A stretch of 35,825 nt of DNA from a virus (Duplodnaviria; Caudoviricetes): the IMG/VR virus record IMGVR_UViG_3300026848_000012, positions 1 to 35,825 of that record; one strand, given 5' to 3'. Of this stretch, positions 22,981 to 27,715 are shown piece after piece (within the stretch, counting starts at the first letter, position 1; the number at the start of each line of letters is the position of its first letter). Under the pieces are notes generated by a model. It did not search any database. It was not told the origin of the DNA and worked only from the letters and a program-made list of their open reading frames with translations. The position numbers and the translations under genes were made by a program.

Positions 22981-23163
22981 AGTGAAGCTAGTAACAGCTC
23001 GGTACGTTTACGACTAAACGACCTTGTCTATACAGCCGTACACTGCAATGATGTAAGTACCAAAGGATAACACCTAGCGTCAGACGCCAGGTACATGACC
23101 GCCAAGCTGACGCTGTGGCGGTTTTTGTTCGCTACCAAGCGAGCAACTGCTAGGAGAGTCATC

Positions 23164-23670
23164 ATGGCAAGCGCAAATGTAACCAAGAAAGTACGTCAAG
23201 TACTGGACCTCACCTGGGACGACGAACTCCCAGTGGAGCCGGTTGCCATCGCTCGCTACCTGCTGATCACGAAGGGTGATGAGAAGCGCAACATCTCCAT
23301 GGTTGGGCGCGACGACATCACTTTCAGTGGTCAGGCGCGGTACGACCAAGAGAAGCAACGGTATTACTGCGAATACAACGTCAATGAGCCCAGCTATCGC
23401 CAACGTTTTACCCAAGCCCACGAGCTGGGGCACGTTGTGTTGGGGCACGTCCGTAACGGGGTTAGCCCAAAACGCGATACGAGCTTTGCGGTGCGCTCGG
23501 ATGACCAGGATGAAATTGACGCGAACCAGTTTGCGGCGGAGCTTCTGATGCCAGAGGAGTACGTGCGCACAGCCGTTAAGCGCGAATTTAACGTCAACAA
23601 GCTGGCCAGCCTGTTCGACGTATCTACGGCGGCGATGCACTACAGGCTCAAGAACCTAGGTCTGCTATAA
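23164..23670 (+). CDS. ImmA/IrrE-family Zn metallopeptidase, no HTH
   Basis: RQRFTQAHELGH (HExxH) and EIDANQFAAELLMP; AGGAG RBS before ATG 23164. Confidence 0.9.
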   Translation: MASANVTKKVRQVLDLTWDDELPVEPVAIARYLLITKGDEKRNISMVGRDDITFSGQARYDQEKQRYYCEYNVNEPSYRQRFTQAHELGHVVLGHVRNGVSPKRDTSFAVRSDDQDEIDANQFAAELLMPEEYVRTAVKREFNVNKLASLFDVSTAAMHYRLKNLGLL

Positions 23671-23677
23671 GTTTTCT

Positions 23678-24301
23678 ATGTCTTTCCTTGAACGTTATCA
23701 TCGATATCTAGGCAAACACACACCTAAAACCAGTGACTCGGATGAAGGAGATACCGAGTCACTAGGCCTAGGTAAACGTTCCAATCCTGATGAACATAAC
23801 GAAGAAGACTGGACGGGGACAAAAACCCCTGAACAGACAGAGGAAGATAGCGAGAAGCTTCGCAAGCGGCATAATGAAGACCTGGATCGCGATAGGGTTG
23901 CTCGTCATACTCAAGGTACCCAGCAAGTAGAGCAAATCATCACGCGCACCAAAGCAGCATCTAGGAATTTCCTTAGACTATCCGTTGCTGGGGCTTCCAC
24001 AATTTTCGTGATCGGCATTTTCTCATTGCCACAAACGCGTGAATTGTTGAATTACTGCCCATGGATAGAGCTAGATGCTGACATAGCCACCTCGGGGCAC
24101 TGGACGATATATCTACTTCTGTTTCTGCCTACTACATTGATGGCCGTCTTAGGCATCACCCTTTGGATCACTGGCCTGAAGTTCTCCTCACAAATTTATG
24201 GCGGTATTCAAGGGTCAGAAGAAAAAGGGTCCAACGAAACCTTGTCAGAGTGCCTCAAAACTTGCCAAGAGATATTAAAGCAAAGTAGCGGATCGCCGTG
24301 A
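23678..24301 (+). CDS. Unknown membrane protein: charged N-terminus, two TM segments
   Basis: 7 nt after the protease stop; hydrophobic LSVAGASTIFVIGIFSL and WTIYLLLFLPTTLMAVLGITLWITGL. Confidence 0.8.
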   Translation: MSFLERYHRYLGKHTPKTSDSDEGDTESLGLGKRSNPDEHNEEDWTGTKTPEQTEEDSEKLRKRHNEDLDRDRVARHTQGTQQVEQIITRTKAASRNFLRLSVAGASTIFVIGIFSLPQTRELLNYCPWIELDADIATSGHWTIYLLLFLPTTLMAVLGITLWITGLKFSSQIYGGIQGSEEKGSNETLSECLKTCQEILKQSSGSP

Positions 24302-24361: not shown

Positions 24362-25102
24362 TCACTCTGGCGGCGCCTCAAAAAGCCCCATCACCATCGC
24401 CCGCAGCTCCTCCGCTTCCCAAAATCCGGTCAGAATAGAAACGATCAAAGCCGCCGCTGCCAGCCATAGCGCTTTGCGGTTACTCCACTCCTGCTCCGCC
24501 TGCGAGCGTTTCCCCTCTTCCACCTGCGCCGTCAGGATACGTAGCTGCTCATCGCTGTTGTCAGTTTGTTTTCTAAGGCGCTCATCCCGTGCGGCCTGCT
24601 CCGCCTTCGCTTTATCCGCTTGCTTGGAAATCATCTCTAAAGCGAAATCTGGGTGGGTGGGAAGTCGACTTTTTACAGGTAGCTCAAGATTCAGAAGCTG
24701 GGGTGAGAGTGATCCACCTGAGCTTCCTTGAATATCAGCCACCGCAGGCTTAAGTGGTGCATGGCGCAGTTCATTACCTAGAGGCAAGCCTCGATCCTCA
24801 GCCATGAGCATACGCCATTTGCTTGTAGGAGCTAAAAGCCCGGCGTTTGCTGGCCCAAATAATAGCGCCTTTTCATACTCGATAGCGGCTTCACACAAAA
24901 TCATATCCAGGTAGTGCAGCTCTTCATAAGCCCGAGTAAACACACCGGCCGGAAAGTCCATGGCCAAGTAGGGAGTAGAAACAGGCGTCAAGTGAACGGC
25001 CTCGTCAGCGCTCACCAATGAGGCCACCCGTTCAGCAGGCGGAAACGAAGGTAATCGCTCCAACTTTCCATTTTTTATCACCAGTGGTTTCGAAGTCCCC
25101 AT
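24362..25102 (-). CDS. Hypothetical protein with coiled coil and C-terminal TM helix
   Basis: 246-aa ORF, GGGGGAG RBS, ALWLAAAALIVSILTGFW. Confidence 0.7.
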   Translation of the reverse strand: MGTSKPLVIKNGKLERLPSFPPAERVASLVSADEAVHLTPVSTPYLAMDFPAGVFTRAYEELHYLDMILCEAAIEYEKALLFGPANAGLLAPTSKWRMLMAEDRGLPLGNELRHAPLKPAVADIQGSSGGSLSPQLLNLELPVKSRLPTHPDFALEMISKQADKAKAEQAARDERLRKQTDNSDEQLRILTAQVEEGKRSQAEQEWSNRKALWLAAAALIVSILTGFWEAEELRAMVMGLFEAPPE

Positions 25103-25336: not shown

Positions 25337-25367
25337 TTGCATCGAAGGTTGCTTTGCTGGTAATAAT
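25337..25367 (+). promoter_or_regulatory. Putative sigma70 promoter of the RT operon
   Basis: TTGCAT (25337-25342) and TGG-TAATAAT (25358-25367), ending 6 nt before the first inverted-repeat arm. Confidence 0.6.
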
Positions 25368-25373
25368 GAAAGG

Positions 25374-25523
25374 GTCTTGGCGATAGGCTGTTCCCTACGA
25401 GCATCCTATCCTCCTCGTGTCACGATGTGACTTGCTGGGCTTCCCTGTGACACTGCTACGGTGTCTCATGATGATCGCCAGTTGGTTATTGGGCCATGCG
25501 CTATGCGCTCGAAAAGCCAAGAC
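25374..25523 (+). ncRNA. Putative retron-like msr/msd structured RNA
   Basis: GTCTTGGC (25374-25381) and GCCAAGAC (25516-25523) are complementary; G at 25382 follows the 5' arm; internal hairpins 25382-25410, 25419-25431, 25446-25469, 25498-25508. Confidence 0.65.
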
Positions 25524-25543
25524 ATGCTGAGGAGTCCGAGAAA

Positions 25544-25756
25544 ATGAAGAAAAAACTTTCTCGGCTAGCTCAGGAGCTTTGGTTCGCTGTCACAGCCATT
25601 CAAAATGCAGAGTGGTTTGCTGATAAGACTGAACTGATTTTACAGCTTCTGGGCGTGGCCTTTAACTACGTTCCTACTTATGACGCTACCATGGAAAGAT
25701 CGCTTCGAAGTCAAACCTGGCCGATGGGTCTACATCCCCACCCAAGAGACGCTTGA
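25544..25756 (+). CDS. Small 70-aa protein between the RNA and RT, candidate effector
   Basis: GAGGAG RBS at 25529-25534, ATG 25544; MKKKLSRLAQELWFAVTAIQNAEWFADKTELILQLLGVAFNY; overlaps RT by 77 nt. Confidence 0.6.
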   Translation: MKKKLSRLAQELWFAVTAIQNAEWFADKTELILQLLGVAFNYVPTYDATMERSLRSQTWPMGLHPHPRDA

Positions 25757-26474
25757 AAAAGGGCGGCAAATCAAAGCGCTTGTTGCTAGTAAATTCCAGG
25801 CCCCATCGTTCTATTATCACCTGCATGAAGGCGGCCATGTGGCTGCTATTCAATCGCATATTGATGATCGATATTTCCTAAATGTAGACATTAAGAATTT
25901 CTTCGGGGTGATCAATCGAAGTAGGATCACTCGCTCACTGAAAAAACGTTTTCCCTATGCTCAGGCCAGAGAGATCACCGTTCAATCTACCGTGCGAGTG
26001 GTCGGTGAAAGCCGGTATGAATATCACCTTCCCTATGGCTACCCGCAGTCCACGATTCTGGCGTCGATATGCTTAGTCGATAGCGCTTTAGGCAGGTATC
26101 TAAACTCCCTTTCAAACCAATGCAACGTCAGTGTGTACGTTGACGACATCATAATCTCTGGTAACGACCCAGATGAGCTGCAACAAATCAGTGATACGCT
26201 CGCAGAGAAGTCCGAAGTGTCGCGGCTTTTTTTTGGTCGACAGAAAGCCCATCAAGTATCCGAGACAATTACAGCGTTCAACATTGAGCTTTCCCAACAT
26301 AAAACAAAAATTACGCATCAGCGTTACAGCCAACTCCTGCAGCAAGCATTACTAGCTGACAATGAAAGTGTCATAAATGGAGTACTAGGCTATGTGCGCT
26401 CAGTTAATCGAGAGCAGCATATAGAAATGCACAAAGAGTTATTTACATTAGGCCATATAAAAGCGCCCGCGTAG
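25680..26474 (+). CDS. Compact reverse transcriptase, retron-like
   Basis: FLNVDIKNFF (motif A), LPYGYPQS (motif B), YVDD (catalytic), HVAAIQSH (region-X-like), C-terminal GVLGYVRSVN; 264 aa. Confidence 0.9.
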   Translation: MTLPWKDRFEVKPGRWVYIPTQETLEKGRQIKALVASKFQAPSFYYHLHEGGHVAAIQSHIDDRYFLNVDIKNFFGVINRSRITRSLKKRFPYAQAREITVQSTVRVVGESRYEYHLPYGYPQSTILASICLVDSALGRYLNSLSNQCNVSVYVDDIIISGNDPDELQQISDTLAEKSEVSRLFFGRQKAHQVSETITAFNIELSQHKTKITHQRYSQLLQQALLADNESVINGVLGYVRSVNREQHIEMHKELFTLGHIKAPA

Positions 26475-26495
26475 GATGTCTATGCGGGCGCTTTT
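26459..26495. terminator. Bidirectional intrinsic terminator
   Basis: AAAAGCGCCCGCGTAG-gatgt-CTATGCGGGCGCTTTT between convergent genes. Confidence 0.85.
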
Positions 26496-26516
26496 GCTAT
26501 CGAAGATAAGAAACTA

Positions 26517-26875: not shown

Positions 26876-27715
26876 TCAGCTCCGCACGGCTTCACTTTCG
26901 ATGACATAATTTATGAAAGCACTGCAAACAATTAGCATATAGCGAGCATCAGAATACTTAAGCTTACTCTCATTCATATCGAGCATAGCATGCCGAATTC
27001 CATCCTCGTGGCTGGTATAACCATAAAGTGCGTCGTAAGCCCTGGTAATGCTGGGCGGAAGATCTTTATCACGGCCAAGGGTTTTGATGAGTTTTCCAAG
27101 CGTTCCTTTTTCATCTCCAGTGACAGTTTTCACTAGAGACTCGACAGCACAAATCGACTCTTTGATGGAGTTTCTGAAATCCCGAGAATTGCGGTCAGAC
27201 ATGAGCTGAAGTGCTATTTTCAAATGGTACCGGACGCTTGAAAATTGGTCAGGAACCGTAAGAGAAGATTCAATTTCTTCAATTTCAGCATCAGATACTA
27301 CGGGGGAAATAACTCCCGCCACAAACCGATAGCCTGAGTTCTCTCTTGCCAAAACCTCATTCACCGACTTATAGAAATTATTTTGCAGGTCAGTGCCATG
27401 GCCGCACCACTCCCCAATGAACTCGACAAGATCATACACCTTCATCCAGCCTTCGCTCAGAAACCAATACTTAATAAAGTCAGGAGTTACCCCTCCAGCT
27501 TCATCAACAGGCCTCTTAGCAAAATAAAACATGAAGTCAGTAAAAAACTCCTCAGCTTTTTTATTATTACTCAAAATAACAAAAGGGTTTAAATTTTTAA
27601 ATATTAAGAGATAAGACACACTCCACAGAGATGACCTGAGCTCTTGGTTCATATCATCGATCTGCAGAACCTTAGTTTCTCCCCCGTCCATCATTCTCTC
27701 TGAAAAACGACTCAT
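26876..27715 (-). CDS. AbiJ-NTD4-like domain plus HEPN-like C-terminus, candidate anti-phage protein
   Basis: FSER, LRSSLW, W..VYDLVEF, GYRFV, NSIKESICAVES, LYGYTS..DGIRHA, CSAFINY; AT-rich. Confidence 0.75.
   Translation of the reverse strand: MSRFSERMMDGGETKVLQIDDMNQELRSSLWSVSYLLIFKNLNPFVILSNNKKAEEFFTDFMFYFAKRPVDEAGGVTPDFIKYWFLSEGWMKVYDLVEFIGEWCGHGTDLQNNFYKSVNEVLARENSGYRFVAGVISPVVSDAEIEEIESSLTVPDQFSSVRYHLKIALQLMSDRNSRDFRNSIKESICAVESLVKTVTGDEKGTLGKLIKTLGRDKDLPPSITRAYDALYGYTSHEDGIRHAMLDMNESKLKYSDARYMLIVCSAFINYVIESEAVRS

Follow-up and report, generated by a model that had tools for sequence, protein, structure and literature searches.

Organization of the cassette

The window, a stretch of 35,825 nt from a virus record, carries P2-like genes (tail hub gpD, a CI-type repressor, replication gene A and an integrase). 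A retron-like cassette sits in a cargo stretch of this DNA, with gpD on one side, the repressor on the other and a PDC-S32/AbiJ-like gene nearby, and it contains, in this order, a promoter, an msr-msd-like RNA, a small ORF (SP) and a short reverse transcriptase (RT) gene, with no HTH gene (Table 1). Two metagenome contigs match the cassette with 0 differences in 1135 nt, and possibly share their source with the window. The nearest named relatives of the window RT are found in Vreelandella hamiltonii (81%) and a Halomonas (75%).

Table 1. Coordinates in the window of the cassette features and of the segments that pair with each other.
Feature	Position	Strand	Remarks
Sigma70-like promoter	25337–25367	+	−35 TTGCAT, −10 AATAAT; spacing weak
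a1 inverted repeat	25374–25381	+	predicted RNA 5′ end; 8-bp perfect repeat with a2
msr-like part	25382–25433	+	G after a1; AG 25385–25386, candidate branching G; stem a 25382–25410; stem b 25419–25431; alignment A4
Variable msd-like hairpin	25434–25481	+	from fold; compensatory changes by eye in L001/L002
Template segment M	25483–25488	+	pairs with Asn-Tyr codons 25663–25668; 97.0% paired; two-sided change at 2/5 pairs
Template segment P	25491–25498	+	pairs with 25654–25661 (Val/Met-Ala codons); 95.4% paired; two-sided change at 4/6 pairs
GCGC hairpin, junction arm	25498–25508	+	100% paired in 38 rows, two-sided changes
Segment X, first template nt before a2	25507–25513	+	family: pairs with SP codons 7–9; window: eroded, 4/7 pairs
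a2 inverted repeat	25516–25523	+	partner of a1
Start-codon hairpin of the preliminary description	25527–25573	+	RBS 25529–25534; inner stem CCGAGAAA (25536–25543) with TTTCTCGG (25557–25564), selected in the family; outer arm CTGAG (25527–25531) with CTCAG (25569–25573), not selected in the family
Small ORF SP	25544–25756	+	70 aa; conserved core of ~42 aa ending AFNY; tail overlaps RT
SP coding rod	25569–25653	+	base 25569–25578 with 25644–25653; 83.0% paired; two-sided change at 8/9 pairs
ORF-side partners P′ and N of the template	25654–25668	+	
Retron-like RT	25680–26474	+	264 aa; YVDD 26136–26147; no RBS of its own
Terminator-like GC-rich inverted repeat and T run	26464–26497	+	at RT end; by eye in sequence, absent from scan output

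The RT has 330 relatives at 90% clustering and at least 279 clusters at 50% clustering (E ≤ 1e-30). We fetched 120 loci and excluded 18 (7 with distant RTs and 11 with scant upstream DNA); 102 remained, to which the window was added. A script detected SP in 90 of these 103 loci; among the 13 misses, 11 have SP by eye, one was lost to a contig end and one, L083, has a family RT with neither RNA nor SP upstream. After removal of near-duplicates 49 loci were tested, and later 54–55, once those identified by eye had been added; L117, which has no X motif, and L080, which lacks the Asn column, are missing from some tests, and alignment A7 holds 47 of 53 loci, omitting L016, L017, L025, L030, L052 and L116, all of which enter the anchored counts. 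Across 53 loci, we found no gene between SP and RT, SP running into RT, no Cro/C1-type HTH gene with the RT and no conserved flanking gene.

The reverse transcriptase lineage

The catalytic YxDD motif is intact (YVDD) and the best profile matches are retron RTs. Family RTs are mostly 250–265 aa long, and the top Foldseek matches of the homologue P0029 were the Ec83, type I-A and Ec86 RTs (TM 0.62–0.69), with group II RTs at 0.64–0.65. The best PADLOC RT scores of nine family RTs were 61–76 bits, versus 192–770 bits for 24 typed retron RTs; the NCBIfam St85 model gave 72.9 against a cut-off of 235, and the DRT/UG family models gave 44.6 bits for RT_UG17 and, against a cut-off of 200, 28.8 for Drt3a. 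Retron RTs have a NAXXH motif in region X, with the H as its most conserved residue, and a VTG triplet in region Y, according to the accessible text of Mestre 2020. In the family, His60 of region X is invariant in 44 rows and the N and A of NAXXH are lost, and VTG is absent from region Y, which has an ITAFN-type motif with A replacing G, the equivalence of sites being judged by position after YxDD. An adjacent structured ncRNA closed by a1/a2 inverted repeats, a retron criterion in Mestre 2020, is present.

In a tree without a group II outgroup the family forms one long branch (100/100), which falls beside three HTH-type VI RTs at 61/37, with other placements not rejected (p 0.33 and 0.12). 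Family RTs score 60–76 bits on RT_VI. About 22% of type VI entries are likewise without a called HTH, according to the available part of one report (10.64898/2026.04.27.721009). On sequence grounds, the RT lineage is retron-like and cannot be filed as type VI. We found no description of the present HTH-less family in the literature searched (which included PMC12548924, PMC9226505, PMC8934634 and 10.64898/2026.09.22.753630), and subscription papers and supplements, including those of Mestre 2020, could already list the lineage. The SPIRE survey (PMC13712802) gives, in its accessible part, a 160-bit cut-off, which would likely exclude the RTs of this family. In L001, an IS3-type element with terminal inverted repeats (L001:2501–4190) cuts the RT after about residue 165; the rest of the RT is absent and the ncRNA, RBS and SP are kept (one MAG, n = 1).

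The small ORF

SP had no match in Pfam, PADLOC or NCBIfam and no usable match in the ESM Atlas, and none of 13 homologous SPs and the window SP matched any PADLOC model; SP was not recognisable as a member of type VI SP clusters 2075, 2760, 3272 and 3897 or as Vpa2-like. The SP profile is also unlike two HTH-type VI SPs (hhalign probability 1–2%, with short helices limiting sensitivity). An RBS at −4 kcal or lower precedes SP in 43 of 47 loci and RT in 3 of 47 (background 7%), a comparison in which 7 loci had no in-frame ATG found, and in 45 of 47 the ATG of RT falls within the SP ORF. Synonymous divergence is 0.17 in SP and 0.58 in RT, and SP pN/pS is 0.47 (16 of 19 pairs used). The hydropathy peak (KD19) reaches at least 1.6 in 36 of 54 SPs, with a family median of 1.8; the window SP, with a maximum of 0.95, is weakly hydrophobic. 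Most SPs thus appear to be a hydrophobic or amphipathic helix under protein-level selection, and SP is probably a toxin, putatively an anti-phage one.

Three kinds of frame relation between SP and RT occur, in 74, 12 and 4 of 90 loci, the last being in-frame fusions. Programmed frameshifting was rejected, since three frame relations occur and RT keeps its own Met. The in-frame arrangement was seen in L098:1842–2750 and L105–L107 (proteins P0029, P0046 and P0075), and the sisters L103 and L119 use the other two frames. The AlphaFold model of the fused P0029 has SP as one helix followed by a low-confidence linker; SP may be a split N-terminal RT domain. L125, L126 and L129 encode clade-3-like RTs (type V/VI scores) with a helical ORF of 79–86 aa directly upstream and no HTH seen, and the L129 ORF matches SP_VI weakly (E 1e-4).

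The RNA upstream of SP and its coverage

A −10-like motif lies ahead of a1 in 47 of 54 loci versus a background of 8%, and TTG in 33 of 54 versus 23%; the window site was not among the output of a consensus promoter scan. A G follows a1 in 45 of 54 loci, and an AG lies three nt later in all 54, the search having favoured AG. Two-sided changes occur at 6 of 7 a1:a2 pairs, a count that is partly circular because a1 was chosen by complementarity; in an alignment of the loci, a1 falls in the same column. In L113 and L114 the variable msd-like part is made of short tandem repeats, and in three HTH-type VI loci (L121–L123) the ncRNA regions have a GAGGCTTAGG motif in common. Rfam gave two weak matches and nothing near a gathering score. 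A sequence-only RNA model matched 13 of 52 sources and 0 of 30 loci fetched with the RT_VI model, and missed the family loci L116 and L117.

Metatranscriptome contigs from three samples of one study cover 25372–25693, 25372–25694 and 25379–25691, a replicate run of that study gave two pieces (25374–25542 and 25538–25691), and a second study gave 25387–25609 and 25406–25576; these contigs have a depth of 3–10, derive from near-identical strains and may include DNA carry-over, and ends, strand and level are not readable from them. Template and SP lie in one covered stretch, 25372–25694. The contigs end about 60 nt before the SP stop (25693 versus 25756), an end that, if genuine, would make the abundant RNA a non-stop message. 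The RT gene has no RNA-contig cover, which we do not count as evidence.

The hairpin at the SP start codon

A preliminary description of this DNA had proposed that a hairpin buries the SP RBS, silences SP in cis and could be released by reverse transcription or the cDNA. Both helices pair as claimed (Table 1). The GAGGAG RBS falls in the stem, with 5 of its 6 nt paired (G25532 is unpaired), the AUG (25544–25546) falls in the loop, which has 13 nt, and the stem begins 3 nt past a2.

In isolation the hairpin folds with modest stability (−18.3 kcal/mol, z −2.07, 8 of 200 shuffles equally stable). A column-wise pairing count remained at chance level (44.4 versus 43.4%), and we used chimera tests because the alignment is gappy in this region. 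Only 1 of 96 chimeras was as stable as the window hairpin (z −3.2 versus synonymous recoding), and, of 49 loci, 47 have a native start region that outfolds chimeras and 44 have one that outfolds synonymous recodings. The inner stem, in which the spacer and AUG pair with codons 4–7, is locus-specifically complementary in 52 of 54 loci (p 3e-10), and the outer RBS-side arm in only 21 of 54, in a test that misses pairing if both sides are conserved. For the window, the modelled probability of the outer arm is 0.99 only in RNAs ending at 25600 or 25620 and falls to 0.00–0.07 with the whole SP ORF, because CTCAG then pairs in the coding-region rod instead; the inner arm stays at 0.62–0.89 with the rest of the ORF included.

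Conservation among homologues therefore extends to the inner stem and not to the outer arm that buries the RBS. Silencing of SP in cis fits with a conserved ORF that has a strong RBS and a start codon in a family-selected stem, but the RBS-burying arm is not the conserved element. Release by reverse transcription or cDNA has an experimental precedent, in that the available text of one study shows msDNA releasing translation in a type VI retron (10.1101/2025.10.22.683967), but predicted msDNA is not specifically complementary to the hairpin region, reaching z < −2 at 2 of 54 loci. Translational control itself is not a new idea, having already been published for Retron-Vpa2. In this lineage the full hairpin would serve as a safety fold during transcription and would not be the conserved switch, a reading to which we give slightly less than an even chance.

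A predicted four-way junction between template and SP ORF

The conserved coupling in the family is a long-range pairing between template and ORF, which the preliminary description had missed. The ~35 nt of template before a2 meet both ends of the SP coding sequence, in a predicted junction of the X, P and M template helices, the GCGC hairpin and the rod. In 47 rows, 95.0% of 893 cells in the junction helices are paired, versus 89.9% in shuffles (0/500) and 22–41% in slid controls, and 10 of 19 pairs have a two-sided change. Mapped on the RT tree, with five M registers corrected by hand, changes arose independently 7, 5 and 2 times at three pairs of P; for three pairs of X the counts are 3, 3 and 4, and for one pair of M the count is 3. 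The rod has z < −2 versus GC-matched synonymous recoding in 53 of 53 loci. X and its ORF-side partner X′ are covarying reverse complements (36 of 54 perfect), with direct repeats in 0 of 54, and the distance from X′ to N falls into 11 length classes, all of whole codons (anchors from the protein alignment). In the window, P and M are intact. Since the covarying template:ORF helices require one RNA and the RNA-library contigs span both parts, template and SP lie on one structured transcript.

The four junction strands have CC/GG cores in common, which makes a swapped local arrangement possible, and RNAalifold prefers the swapped one. In number of pairs kept, the interlocked arrangement is ahead of it in 8 rows, level in 39 and behind in none; the central pairs are kept in 178 of 188 cells for the interlocked arrangement, versus 10 of 188 for the swapped one. 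Nested ensembles of the full-length RNA give neither X nor M a probability above 0.5 at any of 53 loci, because a1:a2 crosses both helices; with a2 held out, P appears in 47 of the 53 and X in 14. In these models, the X and M helices need a pseudoknot that the software cannot score. A candidate helix (78.5% paired) that would extend the structure by joining codons 10–12 to the 5′ arm of GCGC was dropped, because the rod explains those codons. Altogether, sequence comparison shows the SP ORF, its RBS, the inner start-codon stem, the rod and three template:ORF helices, together with the absence of an HTH gene and of an RBS for RT.

A proposed switch operated by reverse transcription

We favour, with a confidence just short of even, a two-gene retron-like cassette in which the four-way junction keeps SP untranslated until reverse transcription removes the template strand. 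The junction, crossed by the a1:a2 pseudoknot and probably bound by RT, would block ribosome loading and would also hide the template start, standing in for the HTH brake of type VI. A phage trigger would then allow RT to proceed along the template, copying X, GCGC, P and M, and the msDNA could act in trans as well, by pairing back to its own template. The freed SP ORF would be translated and, because RT starts inside it, RT synthesis would also rise in a positive feedback, the hydrophobic SP helix arresting the cell.

The folding models, which include neither the pseudoknot nor bound RT, disagree on whether reverse transcription would release SP or shut it off. In the unforced model of the window, opening the start region costs 11.2 kcal before and 6.3 kcal after template removal, an easing of 4.8 kcal, and over the family removal eases opening in 19 and hinders it in 11 of 53 loci (p 0.076). 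In nested models with the junction forced, the start region opens more readily than it does once the template is gone in 29 of 53 loci and less readily in 9; for the SD, the corresponding counts are 30 and 4 of 54. We favour release because of the Vpa2 precedent, because there is no selection on the anti-RBS arm, because a safe default would be needed before any RT exists, and because the L001 locus keeps an intact SP beside its IS-truncated RT, as expected if RT is not the antitoxin. Several findings weigh against a lock of SP by the junction: X is eroded in the window and RNAalifold picks the swapped arrangement; RNA pairing explains much of the conserved SP sequence and the window SP is weakly hydrophobic; SP and RT are fused in frame in 4 of 90 loci; and Retron-Sen3, as described in the accessible text, makes its SP constitutively despite similar long-range pairing and a sequestered RBS.

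Some of the same findings would suit a junction that gates RT instead of SP, the latter being a leader or accessory peptide, or restrained post-translationally as in Retron-Sen3, with the passage of ribosomes unzipping the template and re-initiating on the RBS-less RT. The position of the RT start within the SP ORF, the in-frame fusions, the RNA pairing behind the SP motifs and the Sen3 precedent, as far as that report is accessible, are all consistent with it. We consider this unlikely, however, given that no other effector is conserved beside the cassette, that most SPs look like a helix under protein-level selection and that there is no HTH to neutralise SP. Somewhat less probable is a switch of the opposite polarity, in which the junction keeps the anti-RBS segment off the RBS so that the intact RNA is translatable, constitutive RT or msDNA uses up or covers the template and the RBS-burying hairpin can form, and SP is turned on when a phage inhibits RT, when msDNA is lost or when dNTPs are depleted. 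The SD is indeed exposed in the forced-junction models, the full hairpin is the fold predicted for the window once the template is removed, and msDNA would act as antitoxin, as in canonical retron logic; but the outer arm is without locus-specific selection, L001 persists with a truncated RT and a whole SP (n = 1), a cassette on first entry would have no protection and the unforced model leans toward release.

The narrow form of the preliminary description, with the local 47-nt hairpin as the switch and direct msDNA invasion via a Vpa2-type direct repeat as the means of opening it, is very improbable. The hairpin is strong in the window and a 7-nt direct repeat has been proposed for Vpa2 in the available part of that study (10.1101/2025.10.22.683967), but the repeats in this family are the reverse-complementary X and X′, no complementarity of msDNA to the start region was found, and the full-length model loses the outer arm. 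Returning to release by reverse transcription, its fullest form would be an unclassified minimal retron type made of the RNA, a ~45-aa toxin and a 255-aa RT. All regulation would then reside in a Holliday-like four-way RNA junction that hides the template start, silences the toxin ORF and sets RT levels via coupled translation, and reverse transcription would be a self-amplifying trigger that unzips the RNA, with no protein antitoxin; this we put forward tentatively, as a somewhat doubtful proposal.

Comparison with known systems

Type I toxin–antitoxin mRNAs such as hok and aapA1 encode a small hydrophobic peptide and are locked by long-range pairing. Unlike in these, the likely key in the window family would be reverse transcription of the 5′ part of the RNA, and not processing or an antisense RNA.

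In Retron-Vpa2, SP translation depends on msDNA and an HTH protein acts as a brake (Zhang et al. 2025, 10.1101/2025.10.22.683967). In the parts of that study available to us, the window family resembles this type VI system in having the msr-msd and a small hydrophobic ORF on one structured RNA with a retron-like RT downstream, the RBS and start codon in stems and a coding region that forms a folded arm. Unlike Retron-Vpa2 as there described, it lacks an HTH, its SP and its RBS-less RT overlap, the a1:a2 closure precedes SP, a four-way junction brings the template into pairing with the interior of the ORF, and the direct repeat is absent. In Retron-Sen3, also of type VI, control of SP is post-translational (Garcia-Rodriguez et al. 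2026, 10.64898/2026.04.27.721009). As far as the accessible text goes, this retron shares with the window family a long-range pairing of the 3′ part of an msd-like arm with the SP region, RNA-structure selection on the SP coding sequence and a predicted sequestered RBS; unlike that family, it needs an HTH antitoxin, has an IR2 after the SP stop with no significant covariation, and makes its 79-aa SP constitutively.

The new elements, judged from comparative data, are an untyped RT lineage, an HTH-less architecture and a covariation-supported template:ORF junction. Zhang et al. found, in the part available, that msDNA can turn on toxin translation and left the structural basis open. The HTH-less family would be a stripped-down version whose secondary structure is defined by covariation, so that this basis becomes testable by break-and-restore mutations. 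If the switch operates as we propose, the same pairing back to the template could explain how the msDNA 5′ end activates Vpa2 in trans, and a junction gated by RT would amount to a genetic switch, occurring in nature, that reverse transcription drives. The lineage is large, is left untyped by the PADLOC and NCBIfam retron models tested and comes with an unannotated small ORF, and its very short RT may interest work on retron editing.

Neighbouring genes and divergent members

PADLOC defence models matched 10 of 69 scanned neighbours (72 collected), a count without background control, and a single-protein viral scan gave no result. The cargo region that the cassette shares in the window contains a candidate PDC-S32/AbiJ_NTD4 defence gene (26876–27715, −), genes for an IrrE/CapP-like metallopeptidase and, after it, a membrane-like protein (23095–24301, +), and an unannotated ORF of 246 aa (24362–25102, −). 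The divergent L117 has an SP-like ORF and lacks the GCGC and X motifs, and its RNA architecture may be distinct. Other members of the family (L119, L090 and L120) occur in a plasmid leading region, with SSB and PsiB, and directly after gpD of other P2-like phages.
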